Shown one piece after another: positions 3,773 to 19,546 of a stretch of 19,546 nucleotides of DNA. Position numbers and translations under genes: made by a program. The notes below the pieces were generated by a model. That model saw nothing but the letters and a program-made list of their open reading frames with translations, was not told the DNA's origin and ran no database searches. Origin of the DNA: Rotaria sp. (lineage: Eukaryota); contig CAJNUA010000065.1 of NCBI GenBank assembly GCA_905330235.1, positions 246,198-265,743 on the forward strand, read 5' to 3'. The stretch's first letter is position 1; each line of letters begins with the position of its first letter.

Positions 3773-6700
3773 CTATGAAAAGAGAAAAATAAAATTGTTT
3801 AACTATGTCTGGCATATTGTTTCTTCATTACATGATCGAGCATTTCTTTAGTATGACTAGCAGATAGACAAAATCGTATACGTGATTCGTTAATCTTAGT
3901 AGCCGGAAAGCCCACAGTCACTACAGCACATCCACGTTTTAACATTCCTCGATTGACAGCTCTATATAATGAAACAGTTAGTATAAAAAGAAAAAAAACA
4001 TAATTTCATACGCAATTTTAGCTGGTATGAACAGCATTACTGGAACCACTGGCGAATCATTATTTCCATATACAATAAAGCCCATATCAACAAGTTGACG
4101 ACGAAAATAATGAACATTACGAGCTAATTGTTGAATACGTTTTTGACCTAAAAATAATATCGAATACATCTAAGATAATTCTTATCGCATTAGAGATCGT
4201 CATTCCCATCTAAACTACGTAGTTCATTTTGTACTTTTCTTTCTTACAATACTCGGAATTTAATATCTTACCATTATCAGTTCCATCTTGACCACTGATA
4301 ATGTTAAGTGCACTAAGGATTTGATAGACAATAGGTGCCGACATGCTCGATGAGTAACATGCAGAATGAGAATGAGCTCGAATATAATCGACCAAAGACT
4401 ATGACAAAAGTCAAATTCGATCAATTTAATATAAAAGAATATCTCATACCTTGTTACCAGCAATATAACCTCCGACAGAACAGAAACTTTTCGTAAATGT
4501 GCCCATATGTACATCAATATCTTTCGGATCAACATTCCAGTAATCGACAACACCACGACCACGTGAACCAATGGCACCAATTGAATGAGCTTCATCAACA
4601 TACAAATAGACTTTGTATTTTTTCTTAATGGCAACTATTTCAGGTAATTTACACAATGAGCCTTCCATACTAAAGTTTCATAAAGCCAACATTAACAAAA
4701 TTAAGTAGAACAGTCATCCGTTTTACCTGTAGACACCTTCGACGATAATCAAAATTTTTCTCCATGGTCGAAATTTTCTTGATTGACCATAAATAATGGC
4801 TTCACGTAATTGATATTCCAAATCTTGCATGTCTAAAAAACAAATCAATAAACTTTGTCAGAAAAAACGATATAAAATTGAAAAATAGAAGATTTTCATG
4901 ATAATGTCGTTTCCTTTATAAAACATGATGTATTTAACAAAAAAAATGAACAAAAATCACAGTAATCAGAATAACGCTATGAAGCACGAGGAGTGTTAAA
5001 ACTATTTTTTGAGCCATAATATTTTCAAGAAACAGCTATGAAAGTATAAAAATATCTGTATGGACTAAAAATTTAGCGTAGTTATTTGTCTTGAAATGGC
5101 TTCGAAGTTTATGACTTTCCTATTTACTTTCAGGATTTCGAAAACTTTTTTTTCGAAATTCAATTTTCAACACAACTAGAAATATGAAGCTGGCTACGTT
5201 GATCAAAAATATAGCAATCACAAATCCCAGAAATATAATGCTATGCCAGGAAGCGAGTTTTATCCAATGTTGATTCATCGACTCAAACCGAGTTTATGAC
5301 CCTTCTTTCGTATAAACTACCTCGTAAAAAATGGGTTTCGATTTCGAGCCTATAGAATTATGTAAGATAATAGAAGACATGGTTTTATTTTTTCAACTAA
5401 ACTAATATAGATAATATGCAACGAGAAAGAAGGATCAATCAATTTAGTTTAATAATTATTTGAAAATCTGATATATCGGCGTATCCATACGACCATTATC
5501 AAAGTATATATATTAAGAATATGGTCGTGATGTTAGTATATATCCATCAACATAATACAACAAAGATAATTCAAAAAGTGCAAGTCATGGATTAAATAAA
5601 TCAAAAACAACTATTGAAAAATTTCTGTAAATCTGATATGAATAGTTTACGGAATAGTCTTCTCTAGAACGCGATCAGATTAGATTTACCAATGCTATAG
5701 CTAGGATTATGATCAGGACCACTGAAAAAAAGTTATTGAAACTGGAATTCAAAGAAATGAGTCTAGTACATCTCGAGTTGGTATATAGAATGTCCAGAAA
5801 ATCACTAGACAAAGAAAAATTTGAATATCTTTGCCATATTTCGACGATATGTGCTGATATTTTTACCATTGATAAAGTAATATTCAAAGCTTATATTCAT
5901 AAGAGAAACATTGTAAAAATCATTTCAATGTATTTACAATTGATTTTAACCAAGAGCTGTAACCTTTCATAAGTTATGAAAAAATGATATATTTATTTTG
6001 CTAGCCAAGCATAAACGACATCTATTTTTTTCAATCAATTGTTTACACTAGTATCGCTTGGGCTCATATTTATACTATAGATACATGCATTGTTACTTAG
6101 CGTATCCTAAAAGTTTTACACATAAACATCAAGAATATGTTGACAAAACTACAATATTAATTTTTCATAACTTGTGAAATATTATGAACCTTTTGTTGAA
6201 GTCAGTTGTACTACTTAAAAACATTTTTGAGAACGTTTCTCTTATAAATATGAACTATGAACATTGCTTTGTTAGTGGTAAAAATATCAGCCCATATAGT
6301 CGAAATATGGCGGAGACATTTACATTTTTCTTTGTCTGGTGCCTTTCTAGATACCCTTTATTTTAGAAAGAATTCAGAAGCCTTAATTTCTTGAAATACG
6401 TATAAATTAGTCAGAAACTCAGCGACATATGCATAACTTGTCATTGCATGGGGTGCGGGTGTATATCTTGTCTTCACTCGAATCCGCACATAATAGCACT
6501 CACTTTCATCTACATTCAAACCCAAATTACAAAATTTAAATACTCACAACAGGATTTTACTCATAAGACAAGTGGAGACCATAATGTATTGTCAAGGTAA
6601 AAATATCGTTTTTTACTGGCCTAAGTTTAATATGCGTATTTAGGTTTCAAATTGAGAATGTTTCATATCTAAAACTCGTTAATATAATGAAGAAAGGCGA

Positions 6701-7677
6701 GAAATATTTTTCTGTAAAGACCAATTCGAATCAAAATGGGTCATTGCAAATATGGATACATACCATTGTGATTGAATGTGCGAATATGTGCACCAGATAG
6801 TCGAGCACCAAGAATAATTGAAACATGATTTAGTTTATCACTCAATATAAGATCACCCTATTGCAAAACATTTTTAATGAAAGAAAAAAAACAAGATGAT
6901 TGTTCTATACTTTGCCCATTATTGCGGGAATATTTAATGCATTGGTAGCAAAGCCCATACCAAAAGCAATACAATCTTCAACACCTAGATAATTTGCCAT
7001 CATTTCTTCAAGAGTTCTCATATATTGTTGATTTCCTATGAATAGAAAATGAATACATGAAATGATTTGATTTAGTTTATAAAAAGACAAACGTACCTAA
7101 TTCATGACGAGTACTACAGTTCGTAACGCCATAATTTTCAATTGATCTTATAGCTTGTTCTGTACATGGACCGCTGTTTTCGGCAAAACCTAAATAATTG
7201 TATGAACCCAAATTGATGGCCGGTATTTTTCTGCCAGTAAATCTATATCAATGAAGATAACCATATGAGCTTTTTTTCTTTTTTTTGTCGACTTTCTCAT
7301 TCACACTCACCTGAATGTCCAATTGTAATCGTCTGTCACACGTTCCATGACATCGACTATAGGTCCCGCCATACTTGCAATCGGTTGATTGAATACATCA
7401 CGAACACGTTTATAGAGATTACGCGTATAGAAGCACTCGAAACTTTGATAGAGCGGTACAAAATCCTACGAAGAGAAAACATTCATAATAGACTTTTTAT
7501 GAGATGTTTTGAAACCTTTGGATTTGGATCTATAACAAGTGTTTTCTTTTCCAAGCCAATATAACGAAGAAAATCGCGCAACCATCCGAGTGCAGTATGC
7601 AAAGCAAAACTGAGTATAGTAACGACGGCAGCCCAAGTTGGTGCTTCTTCGAAATTTTCATCGTTAAGAGTCATCAT
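3662..7677 (-). CDS. SPTLC2: Serine palmitoyltransferase long-chain base subunit 2 (class-II aminotransferase, AONS family). Gene span from start codon to stop codon, 11 coding exons, about 503 aa.
   Basis: Conceptual splicing across GT-AG introns gives a continuous protein that aligns with my recollection of human SPTLC2 along its whole length. Examples: LRDFLRY in exon 1; [18 protein letters not shown]; [11 protein letters not shown]; [18 protein letters not shown]; [29 protein letters not shown]; [19 protein letters not shown]; [24 protein letters not shown]; [14 protein letters not shown], which contains the PLP-binding Lys; HSHSACYS; [25 protein letters not shown]; [25 protein letters not shown]. 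All intron phases are consistent. Confidence 0.9.
3832..3961 (-). CDS. SPTLC2: SPTLC2 exon 10 ([44 protein letters not shown]).
   Basis: Acceptor tatatag|AGC and donor CAT|gtaatg, phase 0. Matches the human [44 protein letters not shown] region. Confidence 0.8.
4012..4147 (-). CDS. SPTLC2: SPTLC2 exon 9 ([45 protein letters not shown]-).
   Basis: Acceptor tttag|GTC and donor ATTGC|gtatga, phase 2. Matches the human [45 protein letters not shown] region. Confidence 0.85.
4272..4398 (-). CDS. SPTLC2: SPTLC2 exon 8 ([42 protein letters not shown]-).
   Basis: Acceptor tcatag|TCT and donor AATG|gtaaga. Matches the human [43 protein letters not shown] region. Confidence 0.85.
4450..4669 (-). CDS. 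SPTLC2: SPTLC2 exon 7 ([73 protein letters not shown]). Contains the PLP-lysine motif.
   Basis: Acceptor ctttag|T and donor CAAG|gtatga. Near-identical to the human [73 protein letters not shown] region. Confidence 0.9.
4727..4832 (-). CDS. SPTLC2: SPTLC2 exon 6 ([36 protein letters not shown]-). It follows the only long intron in the gene, about 1.93 kb (4833-6763).
   Basis: Acceptor ttttttag|AC and donor TACAG|gtaaaa. Matches the human [36 protein letters not shown] region. Confidence 0.8.
6764..6857 (-). CDS. SPTLC2: SPTLC2 exon 5 ([31 protein letters not shown]-).
   Basis: Acceptor tgcaatag|GGT and donor AATG|gtatgt. Matches the human [32 protein letters not shown] region. Confidence 0.8.
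6911..7035 (-). CDS. SPTLC2: SPTLC2 exon 4 ([42 protein letters not shown]).
   Basis: Acceptor ttcatag|GA and donor AAA|gtatag, phase 0. Matches the human GMGFATNSMNIPALVGK region. Confidence 0.8.
7097..7242 (-). CDS. SPTLC2: SPTLC2 exon 3 ([49 protein letters not shown]-).
   Basis: Acceptor atatag|A and donor TTAG|gtacgt. Matches the human [24 protein letters not shown]...CSTRQEIG region. Confidence 0.8.
7311..7465 (-). CDS. SPTLC2: SPTLC2 exon 2 ([51 protein letters not shown]-).
   Basis: Acceptor cttcgtag|G and donor TTCAG|gtgagt. Matches the human [23 protein letters not shown]...DIMERQSHDYNWSF region. Confidence 0.8.
7516..7677 (-). CDS. SPTLC2: SPTLC2 exon 1 ([54 protein letters not shown]). 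Donor AAAG|GTTTCA, phase 0.
   Basis: The ATG pair at 7677/7674 lies upstream of the conserved membrane-proximal LRDFLRY motif. An upstream in-frame Met at 7731 exists, but the codons between (CFSLIFCNLLQ) are AT-rich and pyrimidine-tract/CAG acceptor-like, so I treat them as 5' UTR or intron. Confidence 0.6.
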
Positions 7678-10600
7678 TTTTTTCGTGTCATCCTGGAGCA
7701 AGTTACAGAAAATTAAAGAAAAACAATACAATATATAAATCTAGCTAAGACTTGACTTACTTTTGATTTTGTGTCCAACAGATATGATGTTTTATTGAAA
7801 GTGTCCGTCATATGTACTCAGTTGCTTCTCAACAATGATGCTTATGTGCTGGTAAATATCTGAAACGATAAAGTCCACCTAGGCCAAAATTTGATTACCG
7901 AAGTATCGTTCCAATGGTGGTTGTAGATTTTAAGGATTTTTTCATATATTTTAGAATCTCGATCAAAATAAATTGATCTTGACAAGTAATAATATTTTCT
8001 TTTCTGAAATTTTTCAGAGTAAAAATAGCTAGCTTTTTACTATTGTTGAAAAATCTTTAAGTGTAACTTCGACGAGATTAAAATGTTAAACACGATGAAA
8101 CAACACTACTTGTGGACGACACTCATTCCATGTCAATCATATTTTTCTTGAGAGTCAGACAGACAAATACATCATGTCCGTCTGAGAGTATAGGTACAAG
8201 TCTTATATCTTCATCCACTCACACTATCCCACACCAACTAACACCCGGTCTCACATCGTTATGGATATGCTCTGTAACTAATAATCGATTTTTCTTGCTC
8301 ATTAGAAATTTGTAAGGAGCGTTGCATTGTTCATCATTATCATCTGAACTGACGGAGAACGGTTCAAAAACGGTGAAAATCGCCAATCGTGTTTCATCCT
8401 TTAGGGCAGTAATCCTGTCTTGTCTTCATCGTCTTAGGCAGTATAAAAAGTCGTCTTAGATAGTCAGAATTATCGGCCTGGGTGCTTCCTAGAAATCTAT
8501 TCTTTCAAAGTGAGAATTCTTCAGTAAGAAAGATGAGGAAATGATGATTGAATTTGAAAATCTTGTATTATTGTAAATATTTCGCTGGTAGGTTGATTGA
8601 AACTCACAGCACATAAACGGACAGGCAATCGAAAAAACTTATCTTTGACAAATAATCACAAGCGGATCGGTTACCGGTTGTACAATCATCTTTGTAATCT
8701 TCGAGTTATACCCTCTTGAACATAATCCAAGGAGTTGACAATAAACCTTATTTAAACTCTTGATTTACTCTCTTAAGAATTTAAAAGATCGATCAATTAC
8801 AGACACTTTTTCTTTATAATAGCATGACTATATTAAGAACTCACCGTAGAAAATTGCGTTTTCATAGCATGTAAATTTTGTAATAACTAAATGCTGCAAC
8901 GATAACAAAGAGAAAGGCTAGAATTTTTCTATGAAGATTTCTAGAAGAAAATTAATGGGTACGCAAGTGAAATTTATTTCGATCAATCTTAATAGATGTT
9001 TATCGGAAGCTTGACTTTACCAGACTATGAAAAAATCTTTCAAATATGCAACTATATGTTGAACAGAATATGCCAAGACTTACATTCAATTGCAGTTACA
9101 CTCTACAATGAAACGTACTTGAAGTAAAAGAATAAAAAGTGAAAGAGAGAGTCTTATAACGTGCTTAAAACTGCGCTCTCTCTATGTTGCTGCCCTACGA
9201 TCAATAACGGCAACATCAACAACAGTAACAGCAATCATTCTTGATTTAATTGCTTCTGCACTGTGATACTACGATTTGTCAATAAATGAGAGCAGAACAC
9301 AGAAAAAAATGTCTCGAGCGCACTAACAATGCAGGCAAATATGTTGGAAGCCATAGCGTTGCCAACATAGAGTTTAGAAACAATCCATTATCGCTTTTCG
9401 TTAGAATTTTAAATACTGTCATCATGTTTTCTCAGAACTTCAAAAAATTGAGTTCATCTGAGTCCTTATCTGTTCTCAGTACATTTCTATCTCTGATAAT
9501 GCAATACTTGATCAAGATTATAATTACTCTGGTGAAAGTTTTGAAAAAAATGAAAAATTTCTAATATTAACTAAGATTTTTGCTCGAGTTTCTAGAAAAA
9601 AAATAGACAAATTTTGGGAAAGTGATATTAAGAACTAAAAGGTAGAAAGTTAAAGAAATAAAATCATAAATATCGATCTATAGACTTATTGATTGTAAAC
9701 AGATAACCTTATATTTGAAGCTAAATATTTATAAATATCTGTTGACATATTTATTAGTTGTCAAATTTGCTCAATGATTTCGATTCGATCATGATATTGT
9801 ATTTTCAATTATGGCTCTTCATTGCATGGTACTATTTGAATTTAAATTGATAGACGAAAATGTATTCGTTGATTATTCATACTTGAGTCTTCACTCAATG
9901 GTTGTGCAGCATCATGCTCTATTACTATTTGATTATTTGAATTTTCTAGAACAACAATACATATATTAGGACTAACATTTACATGTAACTGGCGAAAAAA
10001 AAATATTCGTACGAGAATAGATGGCACGTAGATAGTGATTTTAATGCCCATCAATGTTGACTATGTGAGAACATCTTGTAAGTACAGATTCATAAAGTCT
10101 TTGGTGAGAATATTTAATATTTTGAATTCGATATTTGGTCTTTTGAGATAGGTTTTAGTGATCTTTGTTCCTGGTAATTATATCTATCATGTTAATAATG
10201 ACGATTTCCAATATCTTCAGTCACAATCCTACTATTTAGTTGATTTTCAATAGTGGAAAGTATTTATTTGAATACGCAATGCTACTTAAAATCACTTTAA
10301 AAGTATTACAAGAAAGTAAGAATTACAAAAATGAAAGAAATTTTTCAGTTCATATGACCAATTTTAAGGATTTAAAAATATGTCTACTTATGCAAATTCA
10401 AATCAAGAGAGGTTATAGCTTAGACAAAAAACGATATCCTCTGCTTTTATGAATACTGGAGTCTAATCTTTTTTGAGTGTTAATTTTTTATATTTTGTAT
10501 ATTGCTTTTAGTGATGTTAAATTATTATTTGCCTTGATTTTTATTTAAAGGCATCGGGTGATAATGATAACATTTAGTCGACGTTCATGTATGTAAGAAA

Positions 10601-11089
10601 TCCTCATCGGCAGTTTAAATAACAACATAAAAAATCTAGAAATAAAAATAAGTTAAACATTTTTTATTTCGAAAATATCTTAGAAGAGTTACTATAGAAG
10701 ACAAGAATATTAAAGAGTTTATCAAAATATAATATCTGTTTAAAATTTAAAACGCCTTTTATTTTACCAAAAAAAATTTAATTCCAAACATTTTATACCA
10801 TAACGAGACGTTATCCATATTCTTATAAAGTACGAATATTTCTAAAATGCACATTAGATTAGTCTTAAAAAACGTTGTCACTACTTTATAAAGCTTCTGT
10901 TAAATAATCTTTTCTTCCGTCTCTGTTTTTCATAGCTTTAATTCCATTGGTTTGCAAATGTCCCCACTATTGTATTGCTAAATTTCTTAAACATCTATGA
11001 GATTCAAAAGTTTATTTGATTGAGTTTTGTAGCGTAGTTCCAAACAATTCAACAACTTAAAAATAAATTCATAAATTAATGATATCGCT

Positions 11090-12070
11090 TTTGGTTTTAG
11101 TAAAGATCCTGGGAAAAGATAACAGAATATAATATCTTTTCCAAGATCTTGATAAGATCTTGCTTATCAATCCCCAGATTTCAACGTCTTGCTTACAAGG
11201 TATTCGACTAGGGTAGTCTTAATCCTTTTCATGTCTTGGAAAAACTGAAAAAAATCTTTCAGAATTCTAAATTTCAAGGGTCTTGAAGAGTTTTCTTTAG
11301 AATTCTATTAATTGCAGTACTAAGATATCTCATGATGCAACAAAATCCTTTTCAGAATATCTTCAAGTTCTTGCTCAGCTTTTTTTATCAACTAACAATG
11401 AAGGATTCTATCAGAATTCATTTTCAACTCTATTTCGACGCTAGACAGGAATAACAAAAAGAATTATACTATGACTCTATCAATTTTTGATCAGGATCCT
11501 CTATCCGTGCCTATTATAAGTAACTTTTCTAAACTTGCTCAGGGTCGTGTTGAGATCTGCTTGGGAAGGCATATGTAGAGTCCAGACTAGGGAATAACAC
11601 ATATGGCTAGTTTCTTAATGAAAAAACATCATGGTTAAGTGAAAATTTTTTTAACTAAGGTGTATTAAAAATTTGATCTTGAGAATCCTATCAATACTTA
11701 CCACTAATTTAGTTCACGACCTCAAAAACAATCAAATGATTTCGTCAATATTTTAGCCAGTTTCCGTTCTGGATCTGTTCAAGATCTTCTAATCTCTGAA
11801 CGCCAACAAACTTCACTGTCAATGTGAAGTAAAATATTAACAGGAATAAACAAAAGTTTCTCAAGATTATACTATGCTTTTGTTCCGACTTTGACAGAAA
11901 TCTAAAGACACAAGAACCTAACAGGATTTCATTTCAATTTTCACTGCTTTTGCTATTAAGGTGAACAGAAGGATCCGAACAAAAGCTTAGATGATTCTTT
12001 CTTCAATGTTGTTAAGATTGATATTCAATATGATCTAACACCCAAGTGCTGAAATGAATTATCTTTTGGA
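11090..12070 (+). repeat. Degenerate cluster of the same repeat family. It holds the best copy B at about 11255-11520, flanked by partial or diverged copies.
   Basis: Motifs recur within the cluster. ttcagaattct occurs at about 11259 and about 11299. ttcaag(g/t)tcttg occurs at about 11274 and 11365. cttgctcag occurs at about 11370 and 11543. gactaggg occurs at about 11204 and 11588. attatactatg occurs at about 11463 and 11866. ggatctgttcaagatcttct at about 11771 resembles the copy-A end ggatctgttcaggatctct. Confidence 0.55.
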
Positions 12071-13864
12071 TTTTATCTTCACATAAAACTTGAAAATTCA
12101 TTAAATTAAGGTGTTAGTATCAATTACAGTTATTACACTAATTTTTTCTTTAAAAAAAGATTTTTAGCAAAAAGCAAGTCTTTCAAAAAAACTTTTTCAA
12201 TTCAATGCATTTGTGGGAAAAGCTCAAAAATATAGTTCTTAATCGACTTAAAATGAGCAGATAATAGTATATTTTTTTTAAAACTTCAATACTGCATTTT
12301 TAGAATTTTTTCTCGTAACAATCGTTGTTCAACTGAAAGCACAATACAAGTCGATAAATCAGACGGAATTTAACATATCGAATGTTTAAGTTATATTAAA
12401 TAATATGACACAGTCCAGCAGGGTAAGCTAACCATTGTATAAACTGCATGTCTAGAGATCAATATTCTTTGTGCTCATTTATCTTTTGTTCTGTTTAGAA
12501 AATCGTGCAACATTCGATCAGAATCTTTTCCAATGAAAAATCATTGAAATCCTTACAAGATCCTAATTTAAGAACAACCGAAAATATCAGATATGTCAGG
12601 GATCTAATTCTAAAACAGCAGAGATTTTCATTAGAGAACAATAAGAAACTTAAGCAATGGAAAATGAATTGGTCTAGACGTTGTTTTTGGCCGATCAATT
12701 ATGTGTTGTCAAGTTGTCATCGGGTGAAGCAAAAAAAATTTTTCTTGTCGTTACAACAAACACAAGAAAAGATGTAATTAAATTTTATGTGAAAAGGCTT
12801 TTATGATCATCCACGTTGATGTCAAGAGAAACGTAAAGTTAAATATGAATTTGAGGTTTTTCAATGGGTTAGCTAGTGTGCATTTATGGACGATCTGGTC
12901 AAGAGCGGACGTATCGAGATTGAAATATTCTCGCCAATCATGTAAATTTTTTGTCTTGTTTTCATCGAAATCAAAAATTTGTCTTGCATTCTACTAAAAA
13001 AAGTGTTTTCATTCCTAAAAAACTCGCAAGCATCTAAATGGTGGCTACCTTGAACCACCACTGTGTGTATCTTAAGATAAAGTACAGAAAATAACAAAGC
13101 TTCTATGTCAAGGGTATTAACAACTAGACAGTGAAGTACTAAAGAACTACCGACCAACAAAATTTGAAACTTTAATAGCAGATAGACCTCGCGAAATAGA
13201 TCCAAAGCTTCGATCAAACCAACTTTCCATCGTACGTCCTTCTATGATATATTGGAGTTCGGAGACAAGTTCTCTAAAATTTTATCTTGATTTTTCTAAG
13301 ATACTACGTCTAAACGAGCTGAACAGTTTTTACCGGTACTGTAAAATGTTGGTACGAGAGCTTCTGTTTCCTTACTATCATACTGTTTGCCAATACAAAA
13401 GTCGAAATATGAGATTTGCCACAAATAATGCTTCTTTTTCGATTAGAGCGAATCTTTGTAAAGCCTACCAAAAACCATCTGAAGCACATTTTATGAAAGT
13501 ATCCTGTTCGTGATGGACATGTGTGTAAACTTCTCTTTATTTACGCCTGCACCGTCGATTTAAATTTCGACTTCTTCTTGGTGTGTGTTCAAGTGTCCAA
13601 GGCAATATATTGAGGATTCACAGGTGGTTTGTAGCGGATCTAGGATATTGGTGAATGGATCGAATTAGAGGTCGTAATGAACTCATTTTTGAGTATCTTT
13701 GCTGAGGCAAAATCAAGAAGTATTTCGGAACGTACGACAATCGCTCCTCAGTGCCCTCTTCTGAATTCACCATTGTCGATAGTATAGAGTCGTGAATTAT
13801 CATGATTTGCAACAGAAGTAGATCAATGGGCAAGACTATCTGTAGTTTTAAAATCTTTTCACAA

Positions 13865-14519: not shown

Positions 14520-14720
14520 ATGCGTTTTTATATGCAACTCGAGGCGAAAAGAAAAAGAACGTAAAAGCGAAAGAGAGAGAGAGAAAGAATCAAGGATAGA
14601 GATGTATTCAATGATACATAGTTAGGATGAAAGGAAGGATAAAACATATAATGAAAAGAAATCACAAAGGAAGAACAACACATATAATAAAAAGAAATGA
14701 CAAAAGAAAGGTTAAACATC
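14520..14720 (+). repeat. Polypurine (AG-rich) low-complexity tract with a (GA)n microsatellite core and an imperfect roughly 28-bp tandem duplication.
   Basis: gcgaaagagagagagagaaagaatcaaggatagag at about 14556-14590. acatataatgaaaagaaatcacaaagga and acatataataaaaagaaatgacaaaaga are adjacent at about 14645-14705. The plus strand is almost entirely purines over about 200 bp. Confidence 0.7.
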
Positions 14721-15445: not shown

Positions 15446-16037
15446 CATATGTGTCCTAAATATTTCGTATTAATTCAGTGGTAGAAATTCATCGATAGTA
15501 CACATTTAAATGGGTGTTTGACTAAAACATTATTTAAATTACTAATCAATATATGTACAGTTCACTTGCCACAATTAGAAACTAAACTCATAAACTCGTT
15601 TATACATCGTCAAACTATGCAAGGCAATAAAAAACATTAAAATATATTCTACATTCATTCTCTATCGGCTTGAATTTCTTCTCCAGAAACAAACGTTAAC
15701 TTCAGACACAACAATGCAACTGACTTTTATTTTTCATATTCATTCAAGTAAGGCATCAACAATCATTGAATAAAAATACAGCCTGCAAAGCAGTAGTTTT
15801 ATTAGCTGCATGTTTATACTATAAGATTGAAAACGCTTCAAGCAGGCCTCTTTCAATTATTATTTTTTTCTTCTTCAAACAAACACGAGATTATTCTTTG
15901 TTTTAATTACTTGTCTCTTCGCACCTATTTTGACGATGAAAAAGAAACCATAATGCAGTAATGAAAAAAATCATATCAGAGACCGAAAAGTAACGTTGAG
16001 GATCGAATGCAAATTTTCTCACGCCGTACAGTAGAAA

Positions 16038-18002
16038 ATGGACCGATCTCAGAGTTTCACCTCATTGTTCGAGCCTCTCATCAAATCACAACGAGAAAGT
16101 CAATCGTTATCAACCGAAAGTAGCACCAACTCCGCTCATGAAGCACCAATCAACGATTCCAATCCTATGAATCCAGTCAGTGTTACCCGCATTAGTCAAA
16201 TTAAACCTCGACCACAGAATATCGTAAGCCGAATACGGAAGAGAAATAAAGACTATTTGACTGCACATGACCACGCCACAGTCGATCATCCCACCAGTGA
16301 CGATATCTCGATCTCTTGGAGCAGCAATTCCATTAAAATAGAAGAAGGAAAACAACAGTCACCCAGACAGTGCCAGGGCAGTGTGACGCATATCCTTTCA
16401 AACAAACATAAATCTCCTTCTCTACACAAAATCGAAAACTCTAAGAAAAATCAGGACAATTCGACTTCACAAGGACATGCTAATGTAGTTCATGTATCGA
16501 AGGATGATCTTTCGATCGTTTCTAGCGACAACTACAGTCCAACCGTACGGAAAGAAGCACAACAGCTCTCTCAAAATAACATTCGAGTCAGTCATGGGAA
16601 CCAAACTGAACTTCAGTCTTCTCCTCACAAGATTGATACGCGCAAAAGAAAAAGTGACTATTTGACAGCCCAAGGCCATGTTACCGTAAATGGTGGGGCG
16701 AAAAAGGACGCTCCCATTTCTTCCTTGCTTAAGAGCAACAACAGCAGCGAAAGTGAACAACAGCAACTCGCTGAAAACGCAGTCAGTATTACTCACAATA
16801 ATCCAGATGAACTTCAGCTCTCGCCTATCTATGAAAAAGAGACGCAAAAGAGAAATCAAGAGTATTTGACTACACAGCGTCATGTTAATGTTAATCGCGT
16901 TTCAAAGGATGATCTTCCGATCATTGCTGGCGACAACTATACTACGATCATAAAGAAAGAAGCTCAGCAATCTACTCAAAATAATATTCGAATCAGTCAT
17001 GTGAGTCAAACTGAACTTCGTCCTTCTCCCCACAAGATTGACACACGGAAGAGACATAGCGACTATTTAACAGCTCAAAGCCATGTTACCGTGAATGGTG
17101 GTGCAAGAAAGGACTCTTCCATTTCTCCTACGATCAAGAACAACAACAGTAGAGGAAGAGAATCACAGCAACCAGCTGAAAAGCAAGTCAGTGTTACTCA
17201 CATTAATCCAGATGGACTTGAGTTTTTCTCCATCTACAAAGAAGAGGTACGAAAGAAGAATCAAGAGTATTTAACCGCACACGGTCATGTTAATATTCAT
17301 CACACTTCTAAGGATGATCTCTCAATGTTAACCAGGAACAAATGCAATCAAATCTTACATAAAGAAGCACAGCAGTCATATCAAAATAATATTCAAGTCA
17401 GCCATATTAGCCAACCTGAATTTCAGCCTTCACATCACCAGATTGACATGCAGAAGAAAAAAATTGACTATTTAACAGCTAAAGGTCATGTTACTGTAGT
17501 TGATGGTGTGAAACAGGATTCCTCCATTCCTCCTACGATCGAGAGCAACAGTAGTAGAGAAAGAAATTCAGAGCAACTTACTGGAAATCAAATCAGTGTC
17601 ACTCATATTAACCCAAATGGACTTGAGTTTTTCTTCACTCACAAAGAAGAGATACAAAAGAACAATCAAGATTATTTAACGGCGCAAGGTCACGCTACCA
17701 TTAGTGGTGCTTCAAAGCGCGATCTCTTCACATGTCAGACTATGGGCGATATAGCAGTCAATGGGAAAAGAAAACAACCAGCGAGTGATTATATTAGTGT
17801 GCGTTATACACGAAAAAATCATGTAAGACCGACTGAAGTTACAATGACGGTTGATACCGAAGTGAAGAAAGAGCAAAGTGTGTCCATTGGAAGCAATCGT
17901 AGGAATAAAACCGTGCCCAAAACAGATAGCCAACCACAACTTAATGTAAACAGTGTTGATATCAGACTTTCAGCGGTGAGTAATAAAACAAACGAAATAT
18001 GA
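16038..18002 (+). CDS. Large hydrophilic low-complexity tandem-repeat protein (654-aa ORF) of unknown function. Rich in Ser, Gln, Asn, Lys, His and Thr. No signal peptide or transmembrane segment in the N-terminal 60 aa. It is likely exon 1 of a gene that continues downstream.
   Basis: This is the longest ORF in the window by far, inside AT-rich DNA where random ORFs are under about 100 aa. The start has a Kozak context (gaaaATGg) and an in-frame TAG 6 nt upstream. Internal periodicity: seven units each begin with the motif D/E-Y-L-T-A/T-x-G/R-H-V/A-x-V. The nucleotide period is about 400-405 nt (A-type starts at about 16655, 17050 and 17466; B-type starts at about 16862 and 17263). The complementary-strand ORFs (16110-16355, 16467-16883, 17712-18034) are shadows. 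Confidence 0.75.
   Translation: MDRSQSFTSLFEPLIKSQRESQSLSTESSTNSAHEAPINDSNPMNPVSVTRISQIKPRPQNIVSRIRKRNKDYLTAHDHATVDHPTSDDISISWSSNSIKIEEGKQQSPRQCQGSVTHILSNKHKSPSLHKIENSKKNQDNSTSQGHANVVHVSKDDLSIVSSDNYSPTVRKEAQQLSQNNIRVSHGNQTELQSSPHKIDTRKRKSDYLTAQGHVTVNGGAKKDAPISSLLKSNNSSESEQQQLAENAVSITHNNPDELQLSPIYEKETQKRNQEYLTTQRHVNVNRVSKDDLPIIAGDNYTTIIKKEAQQSTQNNIRISHVSQTELRPSPHKIDTRKRHSDYLTAQSHVTVNGGARKDSSISPTIKNNNSRGRESQQPAEKQVSVTHINPDGLEFFSIYKEEVRKKNQEYLTAHGHVNIHHTSKDDLSMLTRNKCNQILHKEAQQSYQNNIQVSHISQPEFQPSHHQIDMQKKKIDYLTAKGHVTVVDGVKQDSSIPPTIESNSSRERNSEQLTGNQISVTHINPNGLEFFFTHKEEIQKNNQDYLTAQGHATISGASKRDLFTCQTMGDIAVNGKRKQPASDYISVRYTRKNHVRPTEVTMTVDTEVKKEQSVSIGSNRRNKTVPKTDSQPQLNVNSVDIRLSAVSNKTNEI
16650..17720 (+). 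repeat. Intragenic tandem repeat array inside the 654-aa ORF. About 2.6 copies of a roughly 402-nt (134 aa) unit, each made of an A half and a B half of about 67 aa.
   Basis: A-type half-repeats: DYLTAQGHVTVNGGAKKD...ITHNNPDELQLSPIYEKETQKRNQ, DYLTAQSHVTVNGGARKD...THINPDGLEFFSIYKEEVRKKNQ and DYLTAKGHVTVVDGVKQD...THINPNGLEFFFTHKEEIQKNNQ. B-type half-repeats: EYLTTQRHVNVNRVSKDDLPII...SHVSQTELRPSPHKIDTRKRHS and EYLTAHGHVNIHHTSKDDLSML...SHISQPEFQPSHHQIDMQKKKI. They are read directly from the translation. Confidence 0.85.
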
Positions 18003-18027
18003 TTCTTCTGAATGCCTTTTGTTTTAG

Positions 18028-18140
18028 GATACACCTCTGATTCAAAATAATAGCCGTCAGAATAGAATGCTGCGGTCTAACGTGCGTGTTCTCCAAGAGA
18101 AGAAAAACGTCTTAGAGAACCAAGGAACATCAATCATGTA
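18028..18140 (+). CDS. Candidate second exon of the repeat-protein gene (DTPLIQNNSRQNRMLRSNVRVLQEKKNVLENQGTSIM). It ends either at TAA 18138-18140 or at a GTAAGT donor at 18137.
   Basis: A strong phase-0 donor CAGCG|GTGAGT lies at 17976 inside the ORF, 27 nt before its in-frame stop. A polypyrimidine acceptor gcctttt gttttag|GAT lies at 18027/18028. The resulting reading frame is open and heptad-like. AATAAA sits at 18148-18153 immediately after the TAA. Confidence 0.4.
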
Positions 18141-19263
18141 AGTTGCTAATAAAAAATAGCCATGCTACATGTCTTGGATATTCGTCAATGAGAAGATCGC
18201 CGAACTACTTTAGAGTGGAAAATTAATGTCCAACTAACTAAAAGTAGCTCGCCAGTTCTTGCAGAAAGGGTATTTCACAGACCGAGGTCGTGAGTTTTTG
18301 AAGTATTGTAATGTTTTAATGAAAATCAAAATGATAGAATTTTCCATAGGCCTTGATGAACGCCTTTACAGAGATGATGGAGGCCATTAATCGAATGACC
18401 TAGAAACACAGACGCAGGAATATTAATAATCTAATATAAGCGATTTGGTTTTCATCTCACATAGAGAGGAAGAGAGAAAATAGTTTTCATTGTAAACCAG
18501 TTTTTGAAAACGTTATTATATGTGTGCTTTGCATGTAAAACCATTCGAGTTCGTTGGATTGGCTCCGAACTCGGTTTTGTCAGGGTTTACAAATGTGCAT
18601 CATCCGAATCAGAATCAGAGGATTTCATACCGGACAGAATCTATTTACCATGCGATATTCCAAAACCGATAGTTAAGTTGCAATTTCCTTTCGTCAATTT
18701 TCTTTATGAATAATTCGTCATTGTATTTGCAAGCTAGTTTATCTTATGACACTTCAATGTTCTTTTTCCAGCCTAACTTCATTCGCATAGATGAAATTTA
18801 TCAAATGTGTTGAAGGGATATATTGGATTTATAATGAACAGTAATGTCACTGTAATGCGACGCTGAAAATTCAGATTTTCTGGCGAATAAATCCTTTTTT
18901 GGGGCTTCATCATTCGTCAGCCGTTGCCACACAAAACCATAATAAAAAGATATCCTCGTCTCAAAAAGGTAAACGAATATTCACGTATGAGCTTATAAGG
19001 AATAAGAAATAACACCACTACAAGCAATGTTGAATTCAGCGAACAACATAAACTAACTTTAATGTTGATTTTGCCAAGTTTCAAGAAGTTCTTGATACAG
19101 ACTTGGGTTGTTGCTTGACTGCCATTATATTCCAGACCATGCATAGTGCTTTTCTGTAAAAAACGGAAGGGACACATCTTTTTTTTTACGTAAGCAGATG
19201 ACGGAAGATCACTTTATGACAATGTTACATTAACAAAATATTTTTTGCTCTTTTGTATTACAG

Positions 19264-19546
19264 GCGAAATATTTTCCACAAGCCATGGGGCATGTTTGCC
19301 TTGGTAGCAGCAACTATTCTCATCCTGGGTGGAATCACAGCTCTCGTACTTGGCCTATTGTTAAGTACGTTTTTTATTAATATAGTTTGCTCTCTGATAC
19401 AAGATTTGATAAAAACAGGATCAACGGGTACGCCTACATCGACAACAACAAGTACATCAACAACAGCTACTACTGCGACGACAACAACAACAACAAGCGC
19501 AACAAGTAAGAAATCATTACATGAACGAGCAGTTTTGTACACGTAT
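19264..19546 (+). CDS. Partial gene (5' portion, running off the window) encoding a single-pass membrane protein with a Thr/Ser-rich mucin-like region: ...MFALVAATILILGGITALVLGLLLS...TGSTGTPTSTTTSTSTTATTATTTTTTSATSKKSLHERAVLY...
   Basis: On the plus strand one frame is open from an acceptor-like site (ttttttgctcttttgtattacag|GCG at 19263/19264) to the window end. It contains ATG at 19292 followed by a 24-residue hydrophobic helix and then (ACN)n Thr codons. The 94-aa minus-strand ORF at 19258-19542 (VVVVVAVVAVV) is its antisense shadow. A candidate in-frame 54-nt intron (GTACGT at 19365 ... aaaaacag at 19418) would excise the AT-rich segment STFFINIVCSLIQDLIKTG. Confidence 0.5.

Follow-up and report, generated by a model that had tools for sequence, protein, structure and literature searches.

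The question raised by this locus is whether a long repetitive open reading frame (ORF) is a complete gene and what its repeats could be for. The window, that is, the whole stretch of 19,546 nucleotides that was analysed, corresponds to positions 246,198 to 265,743 of the forward strand of contig CAJNUA010000065.1 from Rotaria sp. (GenBank assembly GCA_905330235.1), and the ORF occupies positions 16038..18002 on the plus strand, with 654 codons and an ATG start. A first-pass annotation, made from the letters of the DNA without database searches, had treated this ORF as a gene of its own, encoding a repeat protein of an unrecognised family. Here, we argue that the ORF is exon 1 of a larger gene and that the explanation moderately favoured overall is a bdelloid type II membrane protein, the tail of which carries multiple docking copies of a short motif, denoted M2 below.

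The window is AT-rich (~30% GC), and long ORFs are scarce in it, as is typical of a short-intron eukaryote; the ORF stands out as an island with a GC content of 0.39-0.42, compared to ~0.30 in its flanks. By our own arithmetic, 654 codons would stay open by chance with a probability of ~1e-18 at a stop-codon frequency of ~0.06, in agreement with the initial view that the ORF is not a chance occurrence. The ratio of nonsynonymous to synonymous substitutions between repeat copies (dN/dS, Nei-Gojobori) is 0.20-0.57; therefore, the frame has been kept by purifying selection. Together with the intact homologous ORFs in other rotifer assemblies, these values confirm a real protein-coding gene, and the selection on the frame rules out a collapsed non-coding satellite, an artefact that the first-pass annotation had named as one that would refute its reading and had itself argued against.

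The periodicity of the ORF was detected by TRF at 16500-17680, with a period of 405 nt, 2.9 copies and 77% matches. To delimit the units, we used a hidden Markov model (HMM) of the half-unit that was anchored on the D/E-Y-L-T motif and then searched iteratively. Eight half-units, each of ~64-65 aa, were identified in residues 28-565, followed by a decayed ninth at residues 572-611. As half-repeats of ~67 aa, the units alternate between two types, A and B, as originally described, whereas the original count of about seven was too low. The consensus of type A is ...NIRVSHVsqTELqPSPHKIDtrKRKSDYLTAQGHVTVNGG... and that of type B is ...VSVTHINPdeLxfSIYKEExxKKNQEYLTAHGHVNIxHxSKDDL.... The units are as follows:

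16119..16313, plus strand: half-unit 1, residues 28-92, PVSVTRI ... KRNKDYLTAHDHATV, HMM E-value 8e-20
16323..16517, plus strand: half-unit 2, residues 96-160, GSVTHI ... decayed motif QDNSTSQGHANV, HMM E-value 7e-22
16527..16718, plus strand: half-unit 3, type A, IRVSHG ... RKRKSDYLTAQGHVTV, found with the HMM
16728..16922, plus strand: half-unit 4, type B, VSITHN ... KRNQEYLTTQRHVNV, found with the HMM
16932..17123, plus strand: half-unit 5, type A, IRISHV ... RKRHSDYLTAQSHVTV, found with the HMM
17133..17327, plus strand: half-unit 6, type B, VSVTHI ... KKNQEYLTAHGHVNI, found with the HMM
17337..17528, plus strand: half-unit 7, type A, IQVSHI ... KKKIDYLTAKGHVTV, found with the HMM
17538..17732, plus strand: half-unit 8, type B, ISVTHI ... 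KNNQDYLTAQGHATI, found with the HMM
17751..17870, plus strand: degenerate ninth unit, ASDYISVRYTRKNHV, conserved in orthologues P0001 and P0002

Seven half-repeats contain a clean [D/E]YLTAxGHV, at residues 72, 207, 275, 342, 410, 477 and 545, and a degenerate copy, DNSTSQGHA, is found at residue 140. Nucleotide identity between copies is 71-79% in the three youngest periods and 51-63% in the older units, and the most similar copies are still at a dS of 0.47-0.76. Judging from this divergence, the copies are old and individually maintained, without recent homogenisation. The number of half-units varies among species, from 5 to 11. For the array in the window itself, ongoing unequal crossing-over with copy-number polymorphism, as proposed initially, is weakened by the dS of at least 0.47 between even the closest copies.

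What is conserved within a half-repeat? Each contains two short conserved motifs, M1 and M2, separated by variable polar linkers that are not conserved. M1 has the form Φ-x-Φ-[S/T]-H-Φ (for example, VSVTHI or IRVSHV), is looser than M2, is often followed by N-P and lies ~22 residues (range ~15-24) upstream of M2. For M2, statistics were collected from 64 distinct instances in 17 proteins of the family and yielded the consensus [K/R]3-4-x-[E/D]-Y-L-T-A-x-G-H-[V/I]-x-[V/I]-[D/N]-[R/H]. The most strongly conserved positions are Y (95%), H (94%), the second and first V/I (94% and 92%, respectively), and L and T (91% each), followed by G (83%) and A (78%). Phe replaces the Tyr in 0 of the 64 instances, although the search pattern permitted it. 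At Y+3, Ala (78%) is followed by V and S (8% each), T (3%) and E (2%), with Leu or Ile in 0 of 64. Asp or Glu occupies position -1 in 81% of the instances, K or R predominates at positions -3 to -6, with Lys/Arg at ~50-60% of positions -5 to -3, and the six upstream residues carry a mean net charge of +1.9 that turns negative in only 4 of the 64. Position -3 is Asn in ~22% of cases (an NxxY pattern), and Pro is not among the residues at -2.

One relative, P0011 (512 aa, encoded on a JGI contig), carries seven near-identical 28-aa tandem units (DHSISERKKKDEYLTSQGHIHVDSFPSN) at residues ~95-290. These units hold the basic patch and M2 alone, and their amplification is recent, which marks M2 as the unit that has been selected and multiplied.

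No paper was retrieved in a literature search for YLTAQGHV, and M2 appears to be a previously undescribed motif, one with no match in Pfam, in the PDB or in the literature that could be searched. When metagenomes were searched with a degenerate DNA pattern for M2, 8 loci were recovered, all encoding unrelated bacterial proteins and about as many as expected by chance. Examples of such chance occurrences of the bare 10-residue motif in unrelated bacterial proteins are the metagenome contigs L014/L017 and L011/L015. One chance match lies at a helix-strand junction of a class I S-adenosylmethionine methyltransferase (GRYADYLTARGHVVVGVD) and another at the very C-terminal end of a large repeat protein (EYLTAQGHVNVI); the M2 sequence is suggested to be compatible with a helix-cap-strand conformation.

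Is the ORF a complete gene? A strongly hydrophobic segment (RNIFHKPWGMFALVAATILILGGITALVLGLLL) is encoded downstream on the same strand, and the ORF can be joined to it through introns that are all of the GT-AG type, giving an uninterrupted spliced frame of 745 aa without a stop codon up to the end of the window (19546). The resulting gene model, in which the ORF is predicted to be exon 1 and for which the splicing is well supported by comparison of homologous loci, comprises the following features:

16038..17975, plus strand: exon 1, 646 codons, encoding the predicted disordered N-terminal cytoplasmic tail
17946..17975, plus strand: conserved end of exon 1, 'NVNSVDIRLSA', abutting the splice donor; equivalents in homologues are D.RLS.V, DLRISLV and NIEVQMTSV
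17976..18027, plus strand: intron 1, 52 nt, GTGAGT...TTTTAG
18028..18137, plus strand: exon 2, DTPLIQNNSRQNRMLRSNVRVLQEKKNVLENQGTSI-, ending in phase 2, with positional equivalents in L002, L004, L006 and L007
18138..19263, plus strand: intron 2, 1126 nt, GTAAGT...TATTACAG
19264..19364, plus strand: exon 3, basic juxtamembrane RNIFHK and transmembrane (TM) helix MFALVAATILILGGITALVLGLLL (nt 19292-19363)
19365..19418, plus strand: intron 3, 54 nt, GTACGT...AAACAG
19419..19505, plus strand: exon 4, Thr/Ser-rich and mucin-like, RSTGTPTSTTTSTSTTATTATTTTTTSAT, predicted to be extracellular, with the donor GTAAGA next to it

The start codon of exon 1 is backed by a conserved 'MD' in the homologues (MDRS/MDHT/MDPF/MDES/MDAS/MDGS). 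Nine homologous loci were fetched for comparison (L001-L009, among them one from the Rotaria socialis genome assembly), and in 9 of 9 a TM exon followed by Thr/Ser-rich coding sequence lies downstream on the same strand. The alternative is that two genes adjoin here, a soluble disordered repeat protein that ends at 18000-18002 and a conserved TM/mucin neighbour. Such an arrangement would fit the ORF having its own stop codon, at which all public ORF-based predictions end, the unusual length of intron 2, and the many basic clusters in the tail that resemble nuclear localisation signals (NLSs). However, similarity to the relatives stops at ...D-I-R-L-S-A, exactly at the GTGAGT donor (17976), and the last 8 codons and stop of the ORF (17976-18002, VSNKTNEI*, 27 nt), which are not conserved, correspond to read-through into intron 1. 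Furthermore, the intron phases after exons 1, 2 and 3 are conserved (0, 2 and 1, identical in the window and L007), and L001, L002, L004, L006 and L008 contain no in-frame ATG before the TM segment, which indicates an internal exon rather than a separate gene start. In L001, the TM-encoding exon is reached after only one 79-nt intron, and the order of the elements is collinear in all nine loci despite the strong divergence of the tail. We therefore regard two adjoining genes as improbable and the single spliced gene as the better model.

A gap of similar length stands at the place of intron 2 in L006 and L004, whereas L002 and L007 have a short one and L001 has none. Conservation of intron 2 against R. 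socialis is patchy (~68%), with one block of 156 nt (18942-19090) that is 68.6% identical to R. socialis; a search of intron 2 against Rfam yielded no small nucleolar or other non-coding RNA match, and no conserved ORF was found in it. An alternative terminal exon, 'ALMNAFTEMMEAINRMT*' (18351-18403), was rejected, as its R. socialis equivalent has stop codons; the TM exon is preferred because it is conserved in all loci. Positions 15750-15969, upstream of the start codon, align to the R. socialis locus with 68.6% identity over 229 nt, and this region may be a conserved 5' untranslated region or promoter. An 'acag' acceptor lies just 5' of the ATG.

The topology of the spliced product can be predicted from its hydropathy and composition. 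Within residues 1-646, the maximum of the Kyte-Doolittle 19-residue window is 0.08, so that the lack of a hydrophobic segment noticed at first holds for the ORF itself. In the spliced product, an N-terminal signal peptide is absent, and a single TM segment, with a maximum of 2.56 in the same measure, spans ~residues 692-716, with R/H/K on its N-terminal flank and the Thr/Ser-rich segment of exon 4 C-terminal to it. Longer Thr/Ser-rich tracts follow the TM segment in L001, L006, L007 and L008, and in distant relatives a Cys-containing, sequon-rich domain is likewise C-terminal to it. The same order of tail, TM segment and C-terminal domain is present, independently, in P0182, a 264-aa gene model that NCBI lists for R. 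sordida. The lack of a signal peptide, the hydrophilic N-terminus, the basic N-terminal flank and the Thr/Ser-rich C-terminal side all argue for a type II orientation. Thus, with high confidence, we predict a type II single-pass mucin-like membrane protein with a disordered cytoplasmic tail of ~690 aa and an extracellular Thr/Ser-rich segment that extends past the window.

For the tail, an AlphaFold2 model of a 132-aa double unit, built from a 19-row alignment, had a pLDDT of 52.7 and a pTM of 0.14 and contained no secondary structure. The idea that the repeat is a folded domain was rejected on this basis, and the result, combined with the S/Q/N/K/T-rich composition of the tail, points to an intrinsically disordered region carrying short linear motifs. 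Among the architectures suggested by the first-pass annotation, the disordered scaffold is thus retained, whereas a free-standing soluble antigen, nuclear or spindle-matrix protein is not, as exon 1 precedes a TM exon and a Thr-rich exon. Nothing found here speaks for the metal or nucleic-acid binding that the first-pass annotation had guessed at, although no test aimed at it was possible.

The TM helix is unusually conserved in the window (19292-19363) and in the TM exons of L001-L009. It displays a small-x3-small-x3-small pattern, G-x3-A-x3-G in the window and the Rotaria-type group and A-x3-A-x3-A in the distant group, which suggests possible helix-helix association. The features of this helix also bear on a different fate for the tail, namely regulated intramembrane proteolysis, in which cleavage within the Gly-containing TM helix would release the tail to enter the nucleus via its basic clusters. 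SPPL2 and S2P act on type II substrates. Such a release would partly restore the nuclear protein considered in the first-pass annotation. Compatible with this scenario are the type II topology, the seven K/R clusters resembling monopartite NLSs that precede the motifs of the tail, and a conserved GG pair in the TM helix of the Rotaria-type group; in the distant subfamily, however, AG or AS replaces GG, and no DNA-binding or transcription-related domain is present. The idea is purely circumstantial, and we consider it quite unlikely.

How wide is the family? A word-indexed search retrieved 10 relatives, and an exhaustive profile search, which covered 1.84 billion representative proteins, increased the number to 17 at E < 1e-3. 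None of the 17 carries a functional name; the only ones with any name at all, from Rotaria socialis and R. magnacalcarata, are listed as "unnamed protein product". Searches of the tail against Pfam, PDB sequences and PDB profiles yielded nothing above threshold, so the family is indeed unrecognised, as the first-pass annotation had stated. An exact look-up of the window protein in a public collection found it not on record, and a metagenome scan with the whole tail recovered no relatives. By these searches, the gene appears to be restricted so far to bdelloid rotifers.

More distant paralogues show what can follow the TM segment. In L001, L008 and L009, which come from ENA and Logan assemblies with a GC content of 0.37-0.47, the motif tail is followed by the TM segment, a long Thr/Ser-rich tract and then a C-terminal domain (C-domain) of ~160 aa. 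These loci contain tandem arrays of 2-4 paralogous genes each:

L001, 7700-13600: tandem array of paralogous genes
L008, 1800-10750: tandem array of paralogous genes
L009, 400-7050: tandem array of paralogous genes

Every paralogue in these arrays has its own TM segment, mucin tract, C-domain and N-terminal tail with 1-5 copies of M2, and within these loci the M2 pattern matches only the frames of the tails. Hence M2 appears to be the hallmark of the cytoplasmic tails across the whole receptor-like family. The clustering of the paralogues resembles that of rapidly expanding receptor families.

The C-domain family comprises 111 database members, and every named member belongs to a bdelloid (Rotaria species, Adineta vaga or A. 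steineri). The structural model of the domain is all-beta with a pLDDT of 92.9 and a pTM of 0.89, and the domain is modelled as a ConA/CBM-like beta-sandwich jelly roll. A Foldseek search with the C-domain produced nothing significant, and matches to the Pfam family CBM_4_9 were sub-threshold; sugar binding by the modelled domain is plausible. The C-domain HMM had no match in L006 before the next gene, in L002, L004 or L007, or in the window up to its end at 19546. The subfamily to which the window gene belongs may therefore consist of tail, TM segment and mucin segment only.

Which proteins, then, could read M2? Several established motifs were compared with it and set aside. Immunoreceptor tyrosine-based activation and inhibition motifs (ITAM and ITIM) and the hemITAM require Y-x-x-[L/I], and M2, with Ala at Y+3 and Leu or Ile in none of the 64 instances, fails this pattern. 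The ITIM consensus is [S/I/V/L]-x-Y-x-x-[L/V/I], and DED precedes the Tyr in Dectin-1 and CLEC-2 (PMC3634610). The endocytic signals YxxΦ and NPxY fail as well, as Y+3 is mostly Ala and Pro does not occur at -2. The possibility of a desiccation protein of the LEA/hydrophilin type was rejected, as no Pfam match reached the cut-off. The RHIM of RIPK3 contains the sequence 'NYLTMQ'; the resemblance to RHIM or amyloid motifs was judged coincidental, since M2 has no I/V-Q-I/V-G core.

The multi-copy disordered array, with its ...L-T-x-x-x-H... units, bears a superficial likeness to KNL1/Spc105, in which case the protein would be a kinetochore scaffold and M2 a divergent MELT-SHT repeat. The core of M2 is [D/E]-Y-L-T, however, not M-[D/E]-[ILVM]-[S/T]; there is no Pfam match; the continuation is a TM helix with a mucin segment instead of a coiled coil and RWD domains; and members of the family lie in tandem arrays with lectin-like ectodomains. 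The scaffold is refuted by its architecture and by the register of the motif, and we assign it practically no probability.

A tether at contacts between the endoplasmic reticulum and the plasma membrane is conceivable if M2 (E-Y-L-T-A) were a phospho-FFAT that recruits VAP/MSP proteins. The FFAT core is E1-F2-F3-D4-A5-x6-E7, with Thr at position 4 in Phospho-FFATs, and it requires a flanking acidic tract (PMC7705450). M2 resembles FFAT and Phospho-FFAT in its core E-[F/Y]-x-[T]-A, which agrees at 4 of the 7 core positions (PMC7705450), namely 1, 2, 4 and 5, with the Phospho-FFAT-like Thr at position 4, and its predicted location is cytosolic. It differs in that the upstream flank is basic (mean +1.9, negative in 4 of 64) where an acidic tract would be needed, position 2 never holds Phe, Gly stands at position 7 in 83% of instances, and the G-H-V-x-V extension has no FFAT counterpart. 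Such a tether is highly improbable.

The basic cluster immediately N-terminal to an aromatic, beta-prone motif, the mucin-like ectodomain and the Asn at -3 in ~22% of M2 copies (NxxY) would also suit a link between membrane and cytoskeleton like that of sialomucins such as CD43 and PSGL-1, in which the tail binds FERM or PTB domains by beta-strand addition, or acidic lipids, independently of phosphorylation, and the protein mainly organises the cortex beneath the glycocalyx. The FERM-binding motif of ICAM-2 and CD43 is RxxTYxVxxA. The spacing of the conserved residues in M2 is unlike both this motif and NPxY, and Pro is absent at -2. Both the linker and its role in organising the cortex seem unlikely.

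Against these possibilities, we propose a mechanism in which the tail would be a multivalent docking platform, each M2 being a short linear motif to which a reader in the cytoplasm binds. The near-invariant Tyr would be the key residue, given that it is 95% conserved, never replaced by Phe and preceded by an acidic residue at -1, as at many tyrosine-kinase sites; probably, it would act as a phosphorylation switch, although phosphorylation of M2 is a guess from the invariance of the Tyr and the [D/E] at -1. The basic patch may press M2 against the inner leaflet of the membrane or add to recognition. Eight copies would provide higher valency and avidity, and clustering at the cell surface would assemble the partner proteins. 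We put this scheme of docking site, key Tyr, phospho-switch and avidity forward tentatively, as one possibility that is less probable than the architecture itself.

Several points weigh against the docking tail and the gene that carries it. M2 fits no consensus of a known phosphotyrosine reader, as Y+3 is Ala and not a bulky hydrophobic residue; the His, about as conserved as the Tyr (94% and 95%, respectively), is unexplained by the model; and known readers do not account for the G-H-V-x-V extension. The evidence for splicing of exon 1 to the TM exon consists entirely of conservation, intron phases and open frames, and intron 2, at 1126 nt, far exceeds its neighbours of 52-54 nt in length. 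The ectodomain of the window gene is cut off by the end of the window, and the term "receptor" seems less secure for its subfamily than for the distant paralogues because the R. socialis orthologue has no lectin-like domain before the next gene. In addition, the orthologous tail ORF in R. socialis (L006, positions 10001-12200, GCA_965120305.2), to which exon 1 has ~65% nucleotide identity, is split by stops or frameshifts, so that some lineages may be losing the gene or may do without it. This broken ORF could be a pseudogene, an assembly error or a mis-annotation; the deposited R. socialis gene models bridge its gaps with introns, and P0003, P0004, P0006 and P0009 end in 'QQQQPRAQQLQQQLL', a Thr-rich ACA repeat read in the wrong frame, with the TM exon skipped.

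A bolder reading is that M2 represents a new class of cytoplasmic signalling motif, that the bdelloid-specific type II receptors in tandem arrays, with their mucin stalks and lectin-like ectodomains, form an independently evolved immunoreceptor-like system, and that the gene in the window, with its 8-9 motifs, is a hyper-valent amplifier or co-receptor within it. We find this doubtful.

Elsewhere in the window, the minus strand carries serine palmitoyltransferase exons (aminotransferase class I/II, PF00155) at 3799-4668, 6905-7090 and 7483-7731, one of which, encoding 74 aa, shares 89% identity with a protein of Rotaria sordida. This match, with the ~65% nucleotide identity of exon 1 to R. socialis, marks the window as DNA of a bdelloid rotifer akin to, yet distinct from, the deposited Rotaria species. 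A 331-aa neighbour found upstream in Rotaria loci is absent from the window. Upstream of the gene, a tandem repeat with a unit of 36 nt (2.5 copies, 77% matches) is located at 14630-14719, within AT-rich intergenic DNA.

Bdelloid rotifers have been studied for asexuality, desiccation tolerance and the uptake of foreign genes, and to our knowledge their machinery of cell-surface recognition and signalling is essentially uncharacterised. The present analysis brings a set of fragments annotated as "unnamed protein product" together under one gene architecture of tail, TM segment and mucin segment, with or without a lectin-like domain. The public gene models for the family are wrong: they are truncated where the intron begins, or else, as in R. 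socialis, the splicing leads out of frame into the Thr-rich repeat. The analysis also isolates a sharply conserved 10-residue motif that is short and present in many copies and hence easily testable. If a reader domain exists, M2 would define a lineage-specific signalling module; if not, the gene is left as one more lineage-specific membrane mucin, with a repetitive tail.

Among known systems, the closest functional analogy is offered by Dectin-1, CLEC-2 and CLEC-9A, the group V C-type lectin-like receptors with a hemITAM. Receptors of this kind are type II proteins in which the tyrosine motif of the tail is preceded by one or more acidic residues (PMC3634610). They resemble the distant paralogues described here in the order of their parts, with an N-terminal tyrosine motif, a TM segment, a stalk and a C-terminal ectodomain of carbohydrate-binding type, and in both cases the genes lie in tandem clusters. 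In contrast to the hemITAM, M2 has Ala and not Leu/Ile at Y+3, a basic instead of a tri-acidic flank and an obligatory G-H-V; the rotifer tails carry 1-11 copies of the motif where the hemITAM receptors carry one; the fold of the ectodomain differs, and there is no sequence homology. The subfamily represented in the window, moreover, seemingly has a mucin-like ectodomain only.

The YxxP array of p130Cas, LAT and the EPIYA repeats of CagA are disordered, contain many copies of one tyrosine motif and act by valency. The tail described here is similar in that a short tyrosine-centred motif is repeated in a disordered region; the sequence of the motif is different, the region is fused to a predicted type II mucin-like anchor, and phosphorylation is only putative. 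CD43, PSGL-1 and podocalyxin are single-pass proteins with a Thr/Ser-rich ectodomain and an adaptor-binding tail, of type I topology, with signal peptides and short tails. The rotifer protein shares with these sialomucins the single pass, the Thr/Ser-rich ectodomain and the cytoplasmic tail, but its predicted topology is the opposite, and its repeat tail is ~690 aa long. Single-pass surface proteins with repeated cytoplasmic docking motifs are thus a known kind to which the product of this gene would belong, and the new part is the M2 motif.

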